Positions 29,938 to 55,818 of a stretch of DNA of 64,000 nucleotides are shown in pieces. Under the pieces are notes generated by a model that worked only from the letters and a program-made list of their open reading frames with translations, did not search any database and had not been told where the DNA came from. Both the position numbers and the translations under genes were made by a program. How positions within the stretch are numbered: position 1 is the stretch's first letter; each line of letters starts with the position of its first letter. The DNA comes from a virus: the IMG/VR virus record IMGVR_UViG_3300045988_128837, positions 23,861 to 87,860 of that record; one strand, given 5' to 3'.

Positions 29938-29969
29938 TTGAATATTTTATTTTACATCCTGTATATAAT
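29938..29969 (+). promoter_or_regulatory. Divergent plus-strand promoter (TTGAAT, about 18 nt, TATATAAT) for the HTH gene.
   Basis: Plus-strand reading: TTGAATATTTTATTTTACATCCTGTATATAAT, followed by GGAGG, 8 nt, ATG. Confidence 0.45.
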
Positions 29970-30000
29970 ATGTTACAATATAGATGTGGAGGTATATCAT

Positions 30001-30204
30001 ATGATAAGTTATAAACCGCTTTTCGTAACTTTAGCGAAAAAGGGTATGACAAAATCTGATTTACGAACCGCTTTAAATATGGGGTCTGGTACAATTGCCA
30101 AGATGGCAAAGAATCAGTATATCAGTCTCGAAAACATTGACAAAATTTGCTTATATCTTGATTGCAAAGTTGAAGATGTTATCGAGGTCATACCAAACGA
30201 TTAA
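30001..30204 (+). CDS. XRE/Cro-like HTH DNA-binding protein. The only plus-strand gene in the window; start at MISYKPLF.
   Basis: Strong RBS GGAGGTATATCAT before ATG at 30001. HTH-like GMTKSDLRTALNMGSGTIAKMAKNQYISLENIDKICLYL. Confidence 0.45.
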   Translation: MISYKPLFVTLAKKGMTKSDLRTALNMGSGTIAKMAKNQYISLENIDKICLYLDCKVEDVIEVIPND

Positions 30205-30244: not shown

Positions 30245-30382
30245 TGGAAACAACAGGAATCGAACCTGTGTCGGCAATTTATATGTGATGAAAATTAAAT
30301 GTAAATAAATAAAAATACTTATATGGAGGTAGAAAAATGAATGTTTATGTATTGCCTGCTCTACCAACTGAGCTATGTTTCC
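30245..30382 (-). tRNA. tRNA-like gene with canonical acceptor, D and T arms but an insertion of about 70 nt between the anticodon-stem strands. Candidate intron-containing tRNA or tRNA pseudogene; possible CAU (Met-type) anticodon. CCA is not encoded.
   Basis: Minus-strand reading: GGAAACA-TA-GCTC-AGTTGGTA-GAGC-A-GGCAA[TACATAA...74 nt...]TTGCC-GAC-ACAGG-TTCGATT-CCTGT-TGTTTCC-A. The acceptor stem pairs 7/7 and the T-loop is canonical. Confidence 0.4.
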
Positions 30383-30512: not shown

Positions 30513-31247
30513 TTATTTGCGAGCATTTTTCATCTGATCTAATATGGCTTTAGCTTCTTGCTGTCGCTCTTCTTGCTCCATATGATAATCCAATGTTTCT
30601 GCACTAGATTCATACGCAATAGCAACGCCTTTGGATTGTTCGCTAAGTTTCTTTGCTCCTTCTCGAACCTCTTCCAAACCTTCCTGAGCAGCATTTAAAC
30701 TATTGTATTGGTCTAAATTTTTCTGCAATTCTGCAATCTGCTGATCTGCTTCCATCTGGAGAACCACAGTATCTTTTTCACCTTTTAACTTAATGAGCTG
30801 ATCATATGCTTGGTTTTTAATTTCTTCTTGTTTATCTTTTGTTGCTTGCAACTCTGGGATTTTCTTTTCGTACACTGATTTCTGTGCCTTGAGCGTGGCT
30901 AATTTTTGAGCATAATACATTGCTTTTTTATCATCATTGTTATCAATATACTGGTTGATCATTGCCTCGGTTTTAGAAATTTCTTCTTTTGTTTCTTTGA
31001 GGTTATCTTCCATTGTTGCCAATCGACCAGCTACCATTGTGTATGTACCCATTGTTTTCTGGTAGAAATCCTGCTTATCTTTAATTGCAGTATTATATCT
31101 GGCTCTTGCTCCCTCTGGAGTCATTGCATTTTCTTTGATTTTTTCTGTAACTGTTCCAGATGCCACATTTTTAATCTGCTTTCCATTTTTAGTAAATTGT
31201 AAATATGCGATAATCGCTACAATTACACAAATAATAATAATTGTCAT
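30513..31247 (-). CDS. Membrane-anchored coiled-coil protein, PspA/IM30-like.
   Basis: N-terminal TM helix MTIIIICVIVAIIAYL. Long heptad-rich coiled coil resembling PspA/LiaH organisation. Immediately downstream of the flotillin gene. Confidence 0.35.
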   Translation of the reverse strand: MTIIIICVIVAIIAYLQFTKNGKQIKNVASGTVTEKIKENAMTPEGARARYNTAIKDKQDFYQKTMGTYTMVAGRLATMEDNLKETKEEISKTEAMINQYIDNNDDKKAMYYAQKLATLKAQKSVYEKKIPELQATKDKQEEIKNQAYDQLIKLKGEKDTVVLQMEADQQIAELQKNLDQYNSLNAAQEGLEEVREGAKKLSEQSKGVAIAYESSAETLDYHMEQEERQQEAKAILDQMKNARK

Positions 31248-31261
31248 AATAATTTCTCCTA

Positions 31262-32722
31262 TTAGAACTCACGGTAATCTGCTGGCTCTGGTGTTCCAAG
31301 ATTTTCATTATCTGTAGATTCTACTTCTTTATCTTCAGAAACAAAATCTTTTAGCATCTTTGCAAGATCAACACCTGTAGATCCTTTAACACCATCTGAT
31401 ACCTGATTCACAACATTCATAATATCTTTTGTTAATTTTGTTGTGTTTCCTTCTCCATACATAGTGATACTTCCTACATTTCCTAATGGTGCGGCTGCAT
31501 TTTTAACTGCTTCTGGGAACATCTGGCACATCATTTCTACAATAGAAGCTTTACCCATCTGTTTCATAGCTTCTGCTTTCTTTTCGATTGCTTCTGCTTC
31601 AGCAATACCTTTAGCTTTGATTGCCTCGGCTTCTGCTACACCCTTTGCACGAATACCTTCAGCTTCCTGTTCCATAGCATATTTTGTAGATTCAGCTTCT
31701 TTTTCTTTAGCATATTTATTAGCTTCAGATTCTTTCTGTCTCTTGTATAAGTCTGCATCTGCTCTCTGCTGAGAAGCATATTTTTCAGCTTCTGCTTGTT
31801 TCTTAATTTGCGCATCTAATGTCTGCTCTGTTACCTCAACGTCTTTACGCTTCAGTTCAATTTCCTTTTCCTGACGCATAATATTAGCATCCGCAGTTAC
31901 AACTTCAATTTCTTTACGTGATTTTTCTTCCTGAATCTTGTATGCTGCATCTGCCTCAGCCTTCTTTGCTTTTGAAATCTTCTCAAGTTCAGATTTTTTA
32001 ATTTCCAGATTGTTATTCTTTTCTGCGATCGCTGTTTCTGACTCAACCCTTGCATCATTCGCTTCTTTTTCAGCCATTGCTTTTGCTTTTTCAATATCTC
32101 TTTCGCTTTCAGCTCTGGAAATTGCAGCCTTCTTCTGAATTTTAACAACATTATCTACACCAAGATTTTCAATAACATCATTATCATCCATAAAATTCTG
32201 CACATTAAAACTGATGATATCTAATCCCATTGCAGCAAGGTCTGGCTTCGCATTTTCTGTAACAAGCTGTGCAAATTTCTGACGATCAGAAACCATTTCT
32301 TCGAGGCTCATCTTTCCAACGATCTCTCGCATATTACCTTCAAGGACTTCTCTTGCGACCTGTCCAATATCGCCTACTGGCTTATTTAAGAAGTTTTCTG
32401 CTGCAAGTTTTAATCTTTCTGGATTACTGCTAACCTTTACATTGACCGCTGCATCTACATTGATATTGATATAATCTGCTGTAGGCACAGAGCTTGATGT
32501 CTTAACATCAATTGGAATTAACTCAAGATTAAGATGATCTGCTTTTTCAAAGAATGGGATTTTTAACCCTGCCTTACCAATTAATGTCTTAGGTGTCTTT
32601 CTAAGTCCAGAAATAATATAAGCTTTATCTGGACTTGCTTTGACATAACCGCTACCGATAATAGCTCCTACGCCACCTACCGCAATAACCACTGGTACCA
32701 CTGTTCCAATTACTTCAATCAT
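31262..32722 (-). CDS. Flotillin-like SPFH/band-7 protein (FloT/YqiK family).
   Basis: N-terminal TM helix, SPFH domain, long coiled coil with Ala/Glu repeats AEAEAIKAKGIAEAEAIEKKAEAMKQ typical of flotillins. Confidence 0.65.
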   Translation of the reverse strand: MIEVIGTVVPVVIAVGGVGAIIGSGYVKASPDKAYIISGLRKTPKTLIGKAGLKIPFFEKADHLNLELIPIDVKTSSSVPTADYININVDAAVNVKVSSNPERLKLAAENFLNKPVGDIGQVAREVLEGNMREIVGKMSLEEMVSDRQKFAQLVTENAKPDLAAMGLDIISFNVQNFMDDNDVIENLGVDNVVKIQKKAAISRAESERDIEKAKAMAEKEANDARVESETAIAEKNNNLEIKKSELEKISKAKKAEADAAYKIQEEKSRKEIEVVTADANIMRQEKEIELKRKDVEVTEQTLDAQIKKQAEAEKYASQQRADADLYKRQKESEANKYAKEKEAESTKYAMEQEAEGIRAKGVAEAEAIKAKGIAEAEAIEKKAEAMKQMGKASIVEMMCQMFPEAVKNAAAPLGNVGSITMYGEGNTTKLTKDIMNVVNQVSDGVKGSTGVDLAKMLKDFVSEDKEVESTDNENLGTPEPADYREF

Positions 32723-32788
32723 AAATATCTCCTTTGTTTATAAAATTTATTTATTACAACACCATATATAGATGTCATAACCTAGTTG

Positions 32789-33121
32789 CTAAATACATCC
32801 GCCACAAGAATTAGGGCGAAAATCCTCTTCGTTGATTGCCTTGAAAATCTGACGCTGAACATCAATATCTGTTGTAATTTCATCTAACCAATACTTATTA
32901 GACTCAATCCATTCATCTTGTTTCAGTCCGTCATAATATGACTCCCATTCTTCAACCCAACCTTTGAAATACCATCTCTCATATTTCTTATATGTATTCA
33001 TAGGTTCTGTGCGTAAGTCTTCTGGAATCTTATCGGTAACATCTTTGCCATCAACATAAAGCTTCCATTCCCCAATACAGAGTGCAAAACCACGACCTGT
33101 CCATTTTGCTTTAACTTCCAT
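32789..33121 (-). CDS. Hypothetical protein.
   Basis: ORF only. C-terminal CGGC. Confidence 0.35.
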   Translation of the reverse strand: MEVKAKWTGRGFALCIGEWKLYVDGKDVTDKIPEDLRTEPMNTYKKYERWYFKGWVEEWESYYDGLKQDEWIESNKYWLDEITTDIDVQRQIFKAINEEDFRPNSCGGCI

Positions 33122-33141: not shown

Positions 33142-34104
33142 TTAATTTCCTAATGCAATTAATGAATTTCCACATGTAATTCTGTCTGTGTCTTCTTCTT
33201 TCGACGGAACAAATACAATTACATCCCAACCGTCTTTTACAAGTGGTTGTTCAAATTTTTCATATACGTCAAAATCTGTTACGATCTCATATCCTTCGTT
33301 AACTGCTTCAACTGTTTCATGGATAGGAGTAATCTTGACAATGCATTTTTCCTTATCGAAATACTTGTTCATCAAATCTACGTCTAAATTACTTTTGGAT
33401 GTAACAGCAAAATTCAATGTATACTTACGTTTCTTTGGCATTGGCAACCAATCAATAATGCCTCCGATCTCTGTTAAAGATAATGAACATCCTCGAAACA
33501 TTTCATTTCTTTGTTCTTCATTAAGAGTATTGATAGAGAACTGAAGACCAAAGCCATCTTCTCCACCATATTCGAATCCAGTTTTAACCCATTTATGTAA
33601 AAATTCTTTTAAATTATTATTTGCCTTTGGCATCATTGTAGAAATTACTGGATGATATGTGTTGAAATGTATATCACTGTCTGGATCTGCTAACATATGT
33701 GCAATCTGTTTAGCCGAAGCAATTACATTTTGATTAAATGTAGGCTCTCCCATTCTTGCATAATGTACATTTAATCGTTCTCCATGTCTGATTCCTGATA
33801 AAGCAATTCCAGAAGTGATCTCCATCATTAACTCTGGCAACGATGCGTTTCCTTTAAATCCAAGTTTAGGGCAATCACAGAAATTGCAATGCATCGGGCA
33901 ACCTTTCTGTGACGAAACAGTCACAACTAATTTTTCTCTAATATCAACTGGTTTATGTTCAACTTTTTCAATTCGTTTATCATACCCAAGAAAATCTGCC
34001 TTAATGTTGTTTTCCTTGCCATAATCACCAACAAATAAGTATTCCAATGTTAAATCTGTATCGGAGATAATTTCTCCTGTATGTGTGTCTGTAATCTGTC
34101 TCAT
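33142..34104 (-). CDS. Radical SAM enzyme, RlmN/Cfr-like (truncated; lacks the N-terminal domain).
   Basis: CxxxCxxC at SSQKGCPMHCNFCDCPK resembles SSQVGCxxxCxFC of RlmN. MGEPTFN parallels GMGEPL. C-terminal TCGNSL parallels the RlmN ACGQL second catalytic Cys. Confidence 0.45.
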   Translation of the reverse strand: MRQITDTHTGEIISDTDLTLEYLFVGDYGKENNIKADFLGYDKRIEKVEHKPVDIREKLVVTVSSQKGCPMHCNFCDCPKLGFKGNASLPELMMEITSGIALSGIRHGERLNVHYARMGEPTFNQNVIASAKQIAHMLADPDSDIHFNTYHPVISTMMPKANNNLKEFLHKWVKTGFEYGGEDGFGLQFSINTLNEEQRNEMFRGCSLSLTEIGGIIDWLPMPKKRKYTLNFAVTSKSNLDVDLMNKYFDKEKCIVKITPIHETVEAVNEGYEIVTDFDVYEKFEQPLVKDGWDVIVFVPSKEEDTDRITCGNSLIALGN

Positions 34105-34659: not shown

Positions 34660-35049
34660 TTAATCTTCTAAAGAATCAATCATCGCACGTAATTCTGCTT
34701 CTGACATCTTCTCAATAGCCTCATCCTGTTTCTTGGAAAGAGCATCAATATATTTTCTCTGTGTCAGTTTCTTATTAATACGTTCCTTCTCAGCAAGTCT
34801 CTCATTACGTTTTGTTATAAAGATATACTTCACAATACCAATCGCAGCTGTTAACTTTGGATCAACATTTGCATCATCCAACAGACTTTCTTCTGAAGAT
34901 TTAACTTCCTGATCTTTCAGATTTTTATAAACCACGTCTAAATCTTTATCAGATAAATCCCATAAATCTTCTACGGATAATTCTCCCTTTGTTGATGGGA
35001 ATCTCAATTTGCTTCTTGTTGCCATTTCGAATAACTTTTCTGTTGTCAT
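34660..35049 (-). CDS. Hypothetical protein.
   Basis: ORF only. Confidence 0.35.
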   Translation of the reverse strand: MTTEKLFEMATRSKLRFPSTKGELSVEDLWDLSDKDLDVVYKNLKDQEVKSSEESLLDDANVDPKLTAAIGIVKYIFITKRNERLAEKERINKKLTQRKYIDALSKKQDEAIEKMSEAELRAMIDSLED

Positions 35050-35069: not shown

Positions 35070-37139
35070 TTAAAATTTAATTTTAAGAACTCTTTCTGTT
35101 GCACCCTTGACTTTAACGATCACATCATCTCGTTTTGTAGAACTGAAACCAATTCCTGATAGCTGGTTTGGATCATCTGCGACATGCATCTTACTTCCTA
35201 AAGCCTCGAATACTCTTTTGTGCTGTACTAATTCCTGCTTCAAAAACTCATTGAAGAATCCATTTGGAGTATCTTCATTTACACATCCATTTAACATAAA
35301 CAGATAATGTTTATGTCCAATACCTGTCTGCTCGTCCCAATAGTTAGGTGAATAACACATTACTGTTACTGGCACAAACTGATTTGTATTGATTCCCCAG
35401 ATTTCTCTTGAAGATGTTGTTGATGGAAGTTTCTCTTTGATTGTGAATACTCCATCTTTTAATGTAACTGTAGCCACTGGAACATCTTCGTTCTGACGTA
35501 AAGGCTTATCATATTCAAATTCATAAATCTGTCCATCAAATTCAATCTCTGCTGTAAATCCAGAAACTCCATTTCTATGAGCAAAATTTCTTACGAAAAA
35601 TTCATATTCTCCGTCAACCATTTTGGATTTATCTGCCCATGTAATATTTTCTACGGCAGGCTCTCCTCTATGTGGATGAGTTACATCAACATCAAGGCTT
35701 CCACCAGTTGCATAATCATGCATTGAAGCATAATAGATATGATGACGTGGAGTTCTGCAATGTGCATCAAAATCATCCTGATTCCAATCTGTATTTGCAT
35801 TCCACTGAATTGAGAATCTTAAAACTCCATCAACTGCACCACCTGCGTTCTTAACTCTTTCTTTCATTTCACTGTCTGTCATATTTCCTGAATATGCCCA
35901 GCTGAAAGGATTACTCCACTTCATCATGTTCTTAGCATCTTTATTTACAGGTGCGATCAGTGAAACCATATTCTTCTTGTGACGATTTTCAAACAGAACT
36001 TCTAATTCTTTTGCCGTTGGAAGTACATCTGATACGAATTTCTCTGCACTGATTTCTTCGACTTTAGAGAACTTCTTAGGATTTACAGCAACTTCCTTAC
36101 TCATCTCATCGAAAATATCTAAACCGCCCTGAATACGTGGGGCTGCATCACGATTACAAAACAGGATATTGTTGACTGTAATATCATCAAGTTCCGCAAA
36201 TCTACGCTGTAATGAATCCATATATCCTAAATCAGTCACAGTTTTCTTTGCATCCTCAAGCATTTTCTTTGTAAAAATTGCCTTTGGTCGTTTGTAATTC
36301 GCAGGAGCTACAACATTTTCATAAGCCTTAACCGCATTATCTAAGTCCATATCCTCACTGATATTTACAAGCAATGTACCAATACTATGGTTTCTAATAC
36401 GACCAATTACATCTCCGATAGTCATTGCTTTTGCCCATGTGTATGTATCTTTTTCTTCATCAGACAAAGCATTATATTCTCGCTGATATTTTCTAAAGTC
36501 TTTTAAGACTCTTTCCCATTCCTGTCCTCTGTAAAGAGTATTTGAAGCGATCAGTTCTAATACGGTATCAACAGCTTCTTCTGTAATCTCATCGAGTGAT
36601 CTTTTAAACACATTCTTTCGATCTCTAACTTTTGCTTTTGCTGTAGGAATATCGGATTTTCTTTCTAGTAATCTCTCTGGAATCGGTGTATACATATGAG
36701 TCCATTTGATAATCTGCTTATCTTCTGTATACTCATTTGTGGTTTTTGTACCAACTGTATTTGTAAAATGTCTCCAAATATCTTTGATTGGTTTAGATTC
36801 TACATATGTTCTCAGAGCATCAACTACTGGCTGAAATACGGCATCCTCAGTGTCAATCTCCCAGATCGTATGAATCTTGCCGTCAACAATTGCCACAGCT
36901 CCACCGATTGTTTTAATAAAGTTTCGGCAATGACCACAGTCATATTCTCGTCGTTTGCGATACATTTTGTTTGTTCCTTCAGGAAAACTACTCAGATATA
37001 CTTCCCACAGCACATCTTTATCAATATCAGTTTCATACAATGTAGAATTGTTTTTCTCTACATAGTCGAGCATTTTATTTAAACGCTCTGACAATTTGTT
37101 TAAAAAATTGCTCCAGTTTTCATTCATTGGCGTACACAT
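35070..37139 (-). CDS. Large hypothetical protein (689 aa), ORFan.
   Basis: Long uninterrupted ORF. No motif recognised by eye. Confidence 0.4.
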   Translation of the reverse strand: MCTPMNENWSNFLNKLSERLNKMLDYVEKNNSTLYETDIDKDVLWEVYLSSFPEGTNKMYRKRREYDCGHCRNFIKTIGGAVAIVDGKIHTIWEIDTEDAVFQPVVDALRTYVESKPIKDIWRHFTNTVGTKTTNEYTEDKQIIKWTHMYTPIPERLLERKSDIPTAKAKVRDRKNVFKRSLDEITEEAVDTVLELIASNTLYRGQEWERVLKDFRKYQREYNALSDEEKDTYTWAKAMTIGDVIGRIRNHSIGTLLVNISEDMDLDNAVKAYENVVAPANYKRPKAIFTKKMLEDAKKTVTDLGYMDSLQRRFAELDDITVNNILFCNRDAAPRIQGGLDIFDEMSKEVAVNPKKFSKVEEISAEKFVSDVLPTAKELEVLFENRHKKNMVSLIAPVNKDAKNMMKWSNPFSWAYSGNMTDSEMKERVKNAGGAVDGVLRFSIQWNANTDWNQDDFDAHCRTPRHHIYYASMHDYATGGSLDVDVTHPHRGEPAVENITWADKSKMVDGEYEFFVRNFAHRNGVSGFTAEIEFDGQIYEFEYDKPLRQNEDVPVATVTLKDGVFTIKEKLPSTTSSREIWGINTNQFVPVTVMCYSPNYWDEQTGIGHKHYLFMLNGCVNEDTPNGFFNEFLKQELVQHKRVFEALGSKMHVADDPNQLSGIGFSSTKRDDVIVKVKGATERVLKIKF

Positions 37140-52812: not shown

Positions 52813-53907
52813 CTATTCTTCTGAAATAATTTCCACCGCTGCTTCGTAAAATCTGTTGTACAAAGTTGCATTAGTTTTAATAAGCTGAGCTTTAGACAGT
52901 CCATGAGCATACTCATCCCAATTAACACCGTTTTCTGTCATCTTAGTATAGATTTTCCGATAAACAGAAGTTCCGCCTTTAGATTTATTTCCAATATGAT
53001 TAGCATAATTGGTAATCTTGATCTTCATTTCTTCCCAATCAGGCTGTGCATTTTCTTTGCGGAACTGTCGCAGAAGTTTTTCCAATGAATTGACTAACAG
53101 ATCAGGATACTTGTCATAGCAAAGATCAATCGTTGGTACATTGCCTCTTTCGCTAATATTATACTTCTCTTTGTATTCTTTCCGATCCTGTTCCCACACA
53201 ATTCCATATGTGTTAGTGAGATACCTGTATACTTCTTTAAGAATATCTCTCGTAGTAGTTCCTAATTCATCAGATTCTTTTAGAATATCATTAATGATAG
53301 AATATACGTTGGATTTCCATTCGTTAAGTTTGTATTCTGCAATAACACTTTCAGTATCTACTACTGGAATATCTTTCGTAGGTTTACCGATCTGCTTATA
53401 TAGTTCTTTTCGTTCGGTTTTCATCTCTTTTACAATGTCCGCCAACTGATTAAAACCTTTGATAGTAACATTGTATAGGCGTTCATTGTTTCTTTCCATC
53501 TGCCTCATAAGTTCTGTCTGTTCTGTAAGAAATTGCTCCACTGTTGTTACGGGAGTTCCTGTTCTTAAATTTCCATGACGATAAGCTCCAATCACATCCC
53601 ATACCCAATCCATAAAGGCATCAGCCTTGGGTTGTCTACTTCTTCTACAAATTTCATAAATGCCACGTTCATTATAGATATAACTAGAATAAGATTTTCC
53701 ATCAGTTGTTTCCAATTTGGTAACAACTGAATCTCTATCTAGTCTTTCTTTATTAGCATCGTGAATTTTTGCAATGGCGACTCTAGGATCTTTATATTCT
53801 AATGCAAGCCCAATCTGTTGCCTGCTCATCCACAACTGATCCTCAGCACTATAAAAATCACACGATAAATCATTAAAATTTTCCGTTTTAACTAACTGTA
53901 GGTTCAT
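52813..53907 (-). CDS. Bro-N domain protein (antirepressor-like).
   Basis: DQLWMSRQQIGLALEY...ERGIYEICRRSRQPKADAFMDWVWDVI. Confidence 0.5.
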   Translation of the reverse strand: MNLQLVKTENFNDLSCDFYSAEDQLWMSRQQIGLALEYKDPRVAIAKIHDANKERLDRDSVVTKLETTDGKSYSSYIYNERGIYEICRRSRQPKADAFMDWVWDVIGAYRHGNLRTGTPVTTVEQFLTEQTELMRQMERNNERLYNVTIKGFNQLADIVKEMKTERKELYKQIGKPTKDIPVVDTESVIAEYKLNEWKSNVYSIINDILKESDELGTTTRDILKEVYRYLTNTYGIVWEQDRKEYKEKYNISERGNVPTIDLCYDKYPDLLVNSLEKLLRQFRKENAQPDWEEMKIKITNYANHIGNKSKGGTSVYRKIYTKMTENGVNWDEYAHGLSKAQLIKTNATLYNRFYEAAVEIISEE

Positions 53908-54229: not shown

Positions 54230-54475
54230 TTAAATCAGCTGATAAATAAGCATTCCGAAAGCTACGATAACCCATAATGTCGTAATTACTTTCATAGGCT
54301 TCATAATAGCTTCTAATATTTCCTCTAATACGTCTATATATTTGCTTAAATATACCTTATTATGTTCACGATCAATTTTTCTTAGCGATAACCAAGCTAG
54401 GAAAACAATCACATATAACACAAAAGATATTCCGCAGAACTGTTCAAAGACATGAATAATCTGTTCTAATTCCAT
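54230..54475 (-). CDS. Small membrane protein (two TM helices).
   Basis: FVLYVIVFLAWLSL and VITTLWVIVAFGMLIYQLI. Confidence 0.35.
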   Translation of the reverse strand: MELEQIIHVFEQFCGISFVLYVIVFLAWLSLRKIDREHNKVYLSKYIDVLEEILEAIMKPMKVITTLWVIVAFGMLIYQLI

Positions 54476-55818
54476 ACTTCATCATCCTCATCTTCATTAT
54501 CATATAAATTTTCCACAGGTGCCGTCTGTTGGAACATATCTGTTGGAGATAGGTTTCTAGCTTCACACATTGCACAAAAGACTTTCAGTACCTTATCCCA
54601 TTCATGTTCTTGAATCCACTGTAGAAATGGTTTCTTTCCACGTTTCTTAACATCAATCTGATATTTATACTGTAAGTTCTTATACAGCTCGTTCCACATA
54701 ACAGAGAACTGTGTTCCTGTAACCGCAGCTAATTTCCTAATACCAGCGTTCATCTTATTGCGATCATCCCACGTCAAAATTTCCGCTGCTAATAGCTTAT
54801 TATCATTCTGTAGCTTCTGATTTTCTTCTTTGAGTTCCTTGTTTTGTGTTCTCAGATCCGTTACCATTGCAAGCTTGACATCTTCAGAGAATGATGGAAA
54901 ATAGTGTTCAATAAACTGTGATTCTTTTCCAAAGTCAACTGCACCGCCTGTCTTACGGATGTTTCTAAGGTATTCTTTGATCTGTTTCTTCATCTGTTTT
55001 GCAATCGGCTTGCGTGACTGCATACACACTTCATAGAGTCCATCTTCTGTCAGAAACCAAAATGGATTAATAGTCTTTCCCGTAGAATCAATCTGACCTA
55101 AATTTGACCCGCCAACATTATTGGCGGTTAAGATTTTGGTCTTATATTTTTCCTCTGAATCAATCACCTGTAACATCATATCTGTTTTATAACTTCCATC
55201 AGGACGTTTACTATAATCAATCCATTCTGCAACATCTCTTGCCAAGAATAACGGATCTTCAATGCTTCTGTATAAGTCAATTCTTCTACCTAAAATTTCC
55301 GTTGTGTCTACAAGCTGCACACCTGCCTCTACCTGCTCTTGTTCTCTCTGCTCTTCTATCGTGATATAATCATTAATGAAAACATAATACCTCACGCTCT
55401 CGGCAAGGCTTGAAGTTTCCATCAGTAGTGAAAGTCGGATTAAACATTTAAGAGTAAACACCTTAGCACCTTTATAGCCGAATGAGATATTTAATCCGTT
55501 CGGATACGTTACCATGATTCTTCCCTTCTGTTTTTCCGTTGTTGCGTTCTGACCGTCAATGATCTCTTGCACTGTCTTAACTTCCATTCCATCGTCTAAA
55601 AACTCTTTGCGATACTTCGTACACAACCGCTTAACCTCGTCAACGTCTCCATCAAAGAATCGTGCTACCTGTTCTGTAGTAATATAATCTCGTCCAGGAA
55701 GCCACGGGATCGGCTTGATTGTAACCTGTTTCAAAAGTTCTGTGTTCTGTACCAGTTCATCTCTCTTTGCTTTATCCAAAATTGGATCGCAAGGAATTTC
55801 CATTTCGTTTAAATCCAT
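54466..55818 (-). CDS. Bro-N domain-containing protein (450 aa).
   Basis: EDGLYEVCMQSRKPIAKQMKKQIKEYL is a Bro-N-like segment related to 52813-53907. Confidence 0.4.
   Translation of the reverse strand: MDLNEMEIPCDPILDKAKRDELVQNTELLKQVTIKPIPWLPGRDYITTEQVARFFDGDVDEVKRLCTKYRKEFLDDGMEVKTVQEIIDGQNATTEKQKGRIMVTYPNGLNISFGYKGAKVFTLKCLIRLSLLMETSSLAESVRYYVFINDYITIEEQREQEQVEAGVQLVDTTEILGRRIDLYRSIEDPLFLARDVAEWIDYSKRPDGSYKTDMMLQVIDSEEKYKTKILTANNVGGSNLGQIDSTGKTINPFWFLTEDGLYEVCMQSRKPIAKQMKKQIKEYLRNIRKTGGAVDFGKESQFIEHYFPSFSEDVKLAMVTDLRTQNKELKEENQKLQNDNKLLAAEILTWDDRNKMNAGIRKLAAVTGTQFSVMWNELYKNLQYKYQIDVKKRGKKPFLQWIQEHEWDKVLKVFCAMCEARNLSPTDMFQQTAPVENLYDNEDEDDEVWN

Follow-up and report, generated by a model that had tools for sequence, protein, structure and literature searches.

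A phage-borne flotillin gene beside a gene for a membrane-anchored PspA-like protein, in an exchangeable cassette slot

What might a bacteriophage gain from encoding, side by side, a flotillin and a membrane-anchored relative of PspA, and how did the two genes come together? The question is raised by a stretch of 64,000 nucleotides (nt) of the IMG/VR virus record IMGVR_UViG_3300045988_128837 (positions 23,861 to 87,860; this whole stretch is called the window here), in which positions 30513-32722 enclose exactly two open reading frames (ORFs), both on the minus strand and, according to the ORF list, of 486 and 244 amino acids (aa). Bacteria maintain their membranes by two main systems, PspA/Vipp1/ESCRT-III proteins and flotillins, the coupling of which has been shown in Bacillus only recently, and here one phage carries both, with the putative PspA-like partner hard-wired into the membrane. 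The explanation favoured here, on balance and with moderate confidence, is that the pair is a co-transcribed two-gene accessory module, formed by a flotillin and a PspA-like protein (termed B), that would serve membrane stability during infection. The pair comprises the following features:

31262..32722, minus strand: flotillin gene, 486 aa, host-derived FloT-like flotillin family protein (Pfam, NCBIfam and flotillin-1 match)
32642..32722, minus strand: N-terminal hydrophobic anchor of the flotillin, approximately residues 1-27 (Kyte-Doolittle)
32102..32575, minus strand: SPFH/Band_7 domain of the flotillin, residues 50-207 (Pfam PF01145)
31403..32137, minus strand: Ala/Glu/Lys-rich coiled coil of the flotillin, including the Flot domain, approximately residues 196-440 (composition)
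31248..31261, minus strand: intergenic spacer, 14 nt, with an AGGAG Shine-Dalgarno sequence for gene B (read from the sequence)
30513..31247, minus strand: gene B, 244 aa, putative membrane-anchored PspA/IM30-like protein (ESCRT-III superfamily), phrog_33389
31194..31244, minus strand: single predicted transmembrane (TM) helix of B, residues 2-18 (Kyte-Doolittle and AlphaFold2)
30519..31118, minus strand: PspA-like helical core of B (AlphaFold2 model and Vipp1 alignment)

Identity of the two proteins

Gene B lies downstream of the flotillin gene across a gap that is too short for a promoter or a terminator, and no terminator-like site was found on the minus strand between the two genes. Because this gap of 14 nt also holds a Shine-Dalgarno sequence, the flotillin gene and gene B are predicted to be co-transcribed. 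The promoter scan performed at chance level (13 sites found vs 13.7 expected) and no promoter is claimed. Both proteins have hundreds of database homologues each and therefore do not represent a chance pair of ORFs.

The first-pass annotation of this DNA, made from the letters alone, had ascribed to 31262-32722 a TM helix, an SPFH domain and a flotillin-type coiled coil, and all three are borne out. Windows of 19 residues exceed a Kyte-Doolittle value of 1.6 solely at starts 1-11, which marks a hydrophobic N-terminus. The Band_7 domain scores 85.1 bits (cut-off 23.6, E 7.8e-24) over residues 50-207, and residues 196-440, composed of 18% Ala, 16% Glu and 15% Lys, contain AEAEA repeats. The Pfam Flot domain (PF15975, residues 355-427) is a marginal pass, with 27.8 bits against a cut-off of 27 (E 3e-06). 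Among PDB sequences, human flotillin-1 matches the protein collinearly (E 1.1e-53, 5-418 vs residues 29-455), followed by flotillin-2 (1e-48), and the only other SPFH match is QmcA (2e-6); no HflK/C chain is found among the PDB matches at E<=1e-3. That the SPFH protein might instead be a regulator of the HflK/C protease type, the alternative named at the outset, is thus rejected, since its closest solved relatives are flotillin-1 and flotillin-2, matched over their full length. The NCBIfam FloT model (NF058507) is also matched end-to-end (5.4e-88), with 296.1 bits, which lies below the equivalog cut-off of 700. By these sequence matches the window protein is a member of the flotillin family and no ortholog of B. 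subtilis FloT.

The identity of B emerges at the level of its family. B itself matches phrog_33389 (2.5e-21), which is listed as of unknown function. Against Pfam PspA_IM30 (PF04012) the single sequence yields only E 0.096 and 12.7 bits (gathering threshold 33.9), in an alignment that is nearly full length (residues 52-242 vs model positions 29-217 of 220). With a profile of ten homologues, 251 of 1.84 billion representatives (50% identity clusters) were collected at E<=1e-3, and they form a coherent set of proteins of approximately 245 aa. PspA_IM30 is matched by nine of ten close homologues of B and, at E<=0.01, by 64 of 105 diverse family members (best 6.6e-13), the second most frequent Pfam family reaching 6 of 105. 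When the profile of these 105 sequences is compared with the PDB, Vipp1/PspA take the first four places (3.4e-7 to 6.6e-7), approximately three orders of magnitude better than tropomyosin-type coiled coils, the best generic coiled coils (a designed WA20-derived helical bundle and tropomyosin) scoring at ~2e-4 to 1e-3. The ten-sequence profile found no PspA in the PDB and gave spurious matches to fatty-acid-binding proteins (E~0.14), and a HMMER bias of 22.7 on a 32.7-bit score indicates that coiled-coil composition inflates the PspA matches. A direct alignment of the B family with the corresponding Vipp1 segment by hhalign gives a probability of 91.6% (E 8.3e-7), covers Vipp1 residues 27-187 collinearly and stays in register through the hairpin tip ('DNNDDKKAMYYAQK' vs 'KGDENLARQALERK'). 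Foldseek places Vipp1/PspA first for two independent models of B, weakly (E ~7e-3). From the sequence profiles mainly, with fold evidence that is consistent but weak, we conclude that B is a divergent homologue of PspA/IM30 within the ESCRT-III superfamily. The early description of the downstream gene as encoding a TM-anchored coiled-coil protein with PspA-like organisation consequently holds at the family level, and the PspA/ESCRT-III-like sequence that it implied is recovered by the profile and hhalign matches, with weaker agreement on the fold from AlphaFold2 and Foldseek. No published recognition of phrog_33389 as a family of TM-anchored PspA proteins was found; a likely function can now be assigned to this PHROG.

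As to topology, B has one hydrophobic stretch, within residues 1-22, and the remainder is helical. The lysines K20, K23 and K26 follow the TM helix and no charge precedes it, so that by the positive-inside rule an N-out/C-in orientation is predicted, with the helical domain in the cytoplasm. The AlphaFold2 model built with a deep alignment (predicted local distance difference test score 85.4) predicts the TM helix, a linker helix and then a layout that would correspond to alpha1-alpha5, with five helices after the TM helix: alpha1 (44-102), the tip DNND (103-105), alpha2/3 (106-184), alpha4 (191-214) and alpha5 (216-243). In the model, the TM helix takes the position of the N-terminal amphipathic helix alpha0 of canonical PspA, which makes B a TM-anchored variant. 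B was also considered as a spanin or other lysis factor, and this appears unlikely: the predicted topology is the opposite one, and no lysis genes are found among the neighbours of B.

Origins of the two genes and the occupants of the slot

The window is clearly a segment of a phage genome. Nearly all of its long ORFs lie on the minus strand, and its PHROG matches include a DNA polymerase, a RecJ-like exonuclease, a primase, a DnaB-like helicase, an exonuclease V/Dda-like helicase and several Ant-type anti-repressors. IMG/VR contigs of ~140-166 kb bear the same locus in identical or nearly identical form. The closest cultured relatives of the polymerase, from Brevibacillus phage Sundance and Clostridium innocuum phage Amboise, are just 29-33% identical. 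The phage, a gut phage of roughly 160 kb, probably infects Bacillota.

The two genes appear to have different origins. Flotillins of Longibaculum muris, Coprobacillus cateniformis and Lachnospiraceae share ~70% identity with that of the phage (for a L. muris locus, L088, 70.3% over 445 aa and 71.6% at the nucleotide level), and because of this similarity to Erysipelotrichaceae/Lachnospiraceae proteins the phage flotillin is read as host-derived, captured fairly recently from a host-like Bacillota genome. The nr database also holds a 95%-identical flotillin as a hypothetical protein of Caudoviricetes. In the nearest bacterial relatives (Longibaculum/Coprobacillus; L088/L089/L090, 3746-6458) the flotillin gene stands in a conserved order, PadR > HAAS > 80-aa TM protein > flotillin, and thus follows a PadR-HAAS pair, unlike canonical flotillin operons with their NfeD partner. 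PadR-HAAS is a regulatory module and a partner of PSP systems (Ravi et al., PMC11237479), and the order suggests that HAAS-PadR places the flotillin of the host under the control of envelope stress. Joint capture with the radical SAM gene that follows the Longibaculum flotillin was considered and rejected, as the radical-SAM-like protein of the window is unrelated.

B, for its part, was recovered solely on phage-like contigs, namely many large IMG/VR contigs, Bacillus phage G (gp247) and three contigs from metagenome-assembled genomes, these three being of phage-like size with an ATPase-TerDx3-B arrangement; the scan of genome contigs depended on patterns from close homologues of B and does not by itself prove absence from bacteria. 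Phage G gp247 is a member of the B family (24.7% identity, E 6e-10). The proposal that a phage carries a flotillin and a PspA-like protein as a pair stands in so far as both are present and adjacent; that they are a copy of a host pair does not, the flotillin being host-derived and B belonging to a family recovered here on phage-like contigs alone. In a further protein, P0153 (L095 1892-3145, 417 aa), which has DNA-ligase adenylation domains, the last ~112 residues match the B-family profile in its C-terminal half (E 6.3e-13), which could reflect the fusion of two genes or, the contig being short, an error of gene calling.

The history of the locus becomes visible in its relatives. A tblastn census covered 88 sequences (87 loci, recovered with an alignment of close homologues of B, and the window), and scans with three more B subfamilies added ~88 loci; loci within each class are close relatives and so do not represent independent samples. 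The site is bounded by the following features:

32789..33121, minus strand: PM0253-like left-flank gene, 110 aa, found ahead of the cassette slot in every close relative
32723..32788, minus strand: spacer upstream of the flotillin gene, 66 nt, with a ribosome-binding site (RBS); left edge of the exchangeable slot
29938..30204, plus strand: convergent gene of the Cro/C1 type with an HTH_26 domain (Pfam HTH_26 3e-14), right flank, kept after B in relatives

The arrangements found, with the identity of B to that of the window where it was determined for the class, are:

34 loci and the window: PM0253 > flotillin > B > HTH(-); B at least 84% identical
15 loci: PM0253 > P-type ATPase > vWA-TerF-like > TerD > B > HTH(-), in the same syntenic slot; B 49-73% identical
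~35 loci: P-type ATPase > TerD x3 > B; B 37-42% identical
~50 further loci: ABC permease > ABC ATPase > gp246-like > B > PBP-OmpA, the order of Bacillus phage G gp243-250
33 additional loci (three-subfamily scans): ATPase > vWA-TerF > TerD > B

The exchange can be followed almost to the nucleotide. In one relative (L039), 96.6% nucleotide identity to the window extends across PM0253 and the RBS spacer, ends 5 nt into the flotillin ORF and returns (88.8%) 10 nt ahead of the start codon of B, and a 4.1-kb ATPase/vWA/TerD cassette occupies the slot in place of the flotillin. In a second one (L032) the slot is empty and an intact B directly follows PM0253, and in a third (L050) the breakpoint falls within the 3' end of B, so that most of B moves with its cassette. 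Since sister genomes with 89-97% identical flanks hold the other cassette, B is read as the constant element and the flotillin as a recent swap-in for a cassette of P-type (Ca2+-type) ATPase, vWA-TerF and TerD. By parsimony, B with the ATPase/TerD cassette would be the ancestral state and the flotillin a derived, clade-specific replacement. A direct link between B and TerD is indicated by P0017 (L005 8001-9080, 359 aa), in which a TerD domain (Pfam 5.2e-58) is fused to the core of B and replaces the TM helix, the neighbours of the gene being a further TerD gene and one for a P-type cation ATPase; this fusion can be taken as Rosetta-stone evidence. No published description of a flotillin interchangeable with an ATPase/vWA/TerD cassette was found. 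Near-identical backbones that hold a flotillin, a Ca2+-ATPase/TerD/vWA cassette or an empty slot provide a natural experiment on the organisers of a PspA polymer. The finding also connects three features newly noted in large gut phages, namely TerD genes, Ca2+ P-type ATPases and flotillins.

The genes upstream of the slot also vary. In close relatives (L002 41-4125, L006, L007 and many census loci), genes of nicotinamide adenine dinucleotide (NAD+) salvage and synthesis, encoding an isochorismatase-family protein, NAMPT/NAPRTase and NAD synthase, lie directly upstream of PM0253 > cassette > B. Genes of NAD+ salvage are a class known for counter-defence. No NAD synthase match was found within 6.5 kb of the locus in the window, where the gene in that position (33142-34104) encodes a radical-SAM-like protein (phrog_24834 3.4e-80, Radical_SAM E 4.7e-4) with a CxxxCxxC motif.

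Flotillins also occur in phages apart from B. MT835492 encodes one that is 40% identical to that of the window, next to a homologue of the phrog_1735 protein of the window; in csAssE-Sib the flotillin adjoins a TM protein, and Vibrio phage KIT04 has a further flotillin without B. The annotation 'flotillin family protein' is already present in a few phage records, and no published description of a flotillin/PspA-like pair in a phage was found. As a separate observation, the phrog_1735 protein of the window (35070-37139, minus strand, 689 aa, phrog_1735 9.6e-265, no Pfam match) and a 129-aa protein (34660-35049, minus strand) have homologues in MT835492 (38.6% and 29.6% identity, respectively), and both of these are encoded immediately downstream of the flotillin gene there (L179 6539-8953).

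Comparison with known systems and possible functions

The first-pass annotation drew on the functional coupling of PspA and YdjI in Bacillus (pspA-ydjGHI), which is indeed documented (PMC8581546), as are gene neighbourhoods that join PspA to Band-7/flotillin proteins (PMC11237479). In B. subtilis, the SPFH protein YdjI is required for the formation of PspA membrane foci (PMC8581546). The likeness to pspA-ydjGHI (samGHI) lies in an ESCRT-III-type PspA being encoded with an SPFH-superfamily protein and in its function in envelope stress (PMC8581546), and the differences are several. YdjI, which YdjG/H recruit, is soluble and a non-classical member of the SPFH proteins, whereas the window encodes a classical TM-anchored flotillin of the FloT type; the PspA of B. 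subtilis is soluble and carries an amphipathic alpha0, whereas B is predicted to be permanently TM-anchored; YdjG/H are required in B. subtilis, whereas no homologues of them are adjacent to the pair; and pspA-ydjGHI is cellular, whereas the pair of the window is phage-borne and was apparently put together from different sources. Because B has its own TM anchor, the flotillin is not needed to tether it in the way YdjI tethers soluble PspA.

Bacterial neighbourhoods of the type PspA-(TM+Band-7+flotillin) exist as well (2024, PMC11237479), the neighbour of PspA having the same architecture as the flotillin of the window. They differ in that the CesT/Tir chaperone, the AAA+ ATPase and the NfeD-like protein found there are absent beside the flotillin-B pair, in the TM helix of B and in the location of the pair in a phage. 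With canonical flotillin operons (FloT/YuaG with the NfeD protein YuaF; YqiK-YqiJ) the window flotillin shares the anchor, the SPFH domain, the EA-rich coiled coil and the Flot domain. These operons have an NfeD partner, whereas the window protein stays at 296 bits against the FloT cut-off of 700 and its neighbours (PM0253-like, radical-SAM-like and B) give no Pfam match to NfeD at E<=0.01; an NfeD partner is typical, not obligatory.

PspA-like genes in other phages have other partners. In Jug phages and some smaller phages, terD lies beside a 'pspA-like gene' with which it is transcribed as an operon, and Ca2+ P-type ATPases are also present (PMC12880540). This cassette resembles the ATPase-vWA-TerF-TerD-B arrangement in having a PspA-like gene at the 3' end of a membrane/ion-stress cassette, and differs from the window, where a flotillin takes the place of the ATPase/vWA/TerD genes. 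In Bacillus phage G (gp243-gp250), a TM-anchored ESCRT-III-like protein is likewise part of a membrane-transport operon, the partners there being an ABC importer and OmpA-domain binding proteins, with no flotillin, unlike in the window. TM-bearing PspA/Snf7 homologues have been described in bacterial operons with an ABC transporter and PBPB-OmpA (Ravi et al., PMC11237479), and because the ABC/OmpA context of the phage G type matches this operon type, it gives independent support to the PspA-like character of B.

The pair can be seen as a phage-borne, TM-anchored version of the PspA-SPFH partnership, assembled recently and not copied from a host operon, and by analogy with the cellular systems a functional coupling of flotillin and B is plausible. 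B would polymerise on the cytoplasmic face of the host membrane like PspA/Vipp1, sealing or stabilising a stressed bilayer and preserving the proton-motive force (PMF) while the phage replicates; being anchored, it would act constitutively once made, with no recruitment by stress. The flotillin would assemble into SPFH cages or microdomains and so gather or arrange B, or else the damaged part of the lipid bilayer. For sister phages, this organising task would fall to TerD, which binds Ca2+, and to a copine-like vWA protein, along with a Ca2+ exporter, and the flotillin would be an alternative to Ca2+-sensing TerD/vWA as organiser of a common effector. The phage could benefit from a PMF kept up during the replication of a large genome and from a buffered load of phage membrane proteins; premature lysis could be averted or lysis delayed, or membrane-depolarising effectors of host abortive infection (Abi) resisted. 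If true, phages actively maintain the membrane integrity or PMF of their host, which would bear on lysis timing, burst size and the evasion of membrane-targeting Abi.

Several observations weigh against this module as proposed. The tethering role of YdjI does not apply to a self-anchored B; the adjacency of flotillin and B is confined to one shallow clade (B at least 84% identical), in which the 34 loci are no independent evidence of coupling; B is kept without a flotillin in L032, and other phage flotillins have no B nearby; the host is inferred solely from flotillin similarity; and the insignificant match of the single B sequence and its composition bias, given above, count on the same side.

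In the main rival explanation, which has a real if distinctly smaller chance of being right, flotillin and B are cargo unconnected with each other, the PM0253-B site being a recombination hot spot at which unrelated accessory genes land and the flotillin acting alone (e.g., on membrane fluidity or microdomains). It would account for wholly different cassettes, or none, in the slot of near-identical backbones, for the recent capture of the flotillin from a host, and for related and unrelated phages with a flotillin and no B (MT835492, csAssE-Sib). However, the slot is filled non-randomly, because all of its alternative occupants are membrane or ion related (P-type ATPase, vWA-TerF/copine-like and TerD, with ABC/OmpA in other lineages) and one phage even encodes TerD and B as a fusion. 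Moreover, the swap retains the upstream RBS spacer and the tight coupling of 14 nt to B, and a cellular precedent for PspA-SPFH coupling exists.

A broader reading, which goes beyond the flotillin-B module and can be offered only tentatively, is that the B family represents a virus-borne, permanently tethered ESCRT-III/PspA-like polymer, the common effector of a modular membrane repair in which the upstream cassettes set where and when B assembles. The interchangeable cassettes would be a flotillin cage, an ABC transporter with OmpA-domain proteins, or a Ca2+ pump with TerD and the copine-like vWA protein. In eukaryotes, ESCRT-III repairs the plasma membrane upon a Ca2+ trigger, with recruitment by ALG-2/ALIX and the participation of copines and annexins. 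The sister cassettes, in which Ca2+-binding TerD and a copine-like vWA protein stand beside an ESCRT-III-superfamily polymer and a Ca2+ pump, are a functional analogy to this repair and an analogy only, as the recruiters are non-homologous and the window lacks the Ca2+ components. Within this modular reading, viruses of prokaryotes would have, in the Ca2+/TerD version, an analogue of the ESCRT-III wound repair that Ca2+ triggers, and the system would let large gut phages maintain the energy supply of the infected cell in the face of their own membrane load or of pore-forming Abi effectors of the host.

Superinfection exclusion or competition of the Ter type, in which an altered membrane would keep other phages, colicins or plasmids from injecting, is rather improbable. 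What the flotillin replaced amounts to a shortened Ter system (TerD, vWA-TerF), the locus is part of an accessory region with NAD+ salvage genes in relatives, and Ter genes of jumbo and related phages have been proposed to counter superinfecting phages (PMC7824862). This is itself just a proposal in the literature, though, and no Ter component is left in the window: tblastn with reference TerD, vWA-TerF and P-type ATPase sequences finds none in its 64 kb. PADLOC defence models match none of flotillin, B, PM0253, TerD and vWA-TerF, and the PspA family is known for membrane maintenance, not for blocking entry. Finally, that B is no PspA homologue at all and instead a generic TM-anchored coiled coil (in lysis timing, spanin-like, holin-associated or a scaffold), as its single-sequence and ten-sequence searches and high HMMER bias would allow if the matches were driven by composition, is now highly improbable given the family-level PspA_IM30 count, the superiority and register of the Vipp1/PspA alignments, the Foldseek ranking, a helical domain predicted to be cytoplasmic (opposite to i-spanins), the phage G-type context and the absence of adjacent lysis genes.

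Further features of the window and its relatives

The 308-nt gap between B and the HTH gene contains the sole Rfam match of the window, a tRNA at 30245-30382 on the minus strand (46.4 bits, gathering threshold 29), with an AT-rich insert of ~67 nt at the position of the anticodon loop. ARAGORN misses it by default and, when introns are allowed, reports a tRNA-Tyr(ata) in which the intron sits at a non-canonical position (32-33). The cloverleaf arms fold (z -2.97), and the tRNA-like halves with an insert of 64-72 nt are conserved in 49 related loci, including those that bear the ATPase/TerD cassette. The insert contains CTACCTCC (GGAGGTAG on the plus strand, then ATG). Candidate readings are a tRNA with an intron, a tRNA-like element for processing or at a 3' end, and a tRNA that has decayed.

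Elsewhere, a mobile element may have entered the phage genome at positions 40001-46200, where integrase-like genes (40620-41648 and 45185-46135) and a transposase-like gene (43025-44311, phrog_2199 2.6e-66) cluster; the lowest G+C of the window, 0.288, is reached at 40001-42000. Three paralogous anti-repressors of the Ant type (PHROG 130/463/5060) are encoded within 17 kb on the minus strand, at 38489-39313, 52813-53907 and 54466-55818. A pair of tandem paralogues on the same strand, at 27668-28201 and 28218-28730, encodes proteins of 177 and 170 aa that are 40% identical (E 9e-34).

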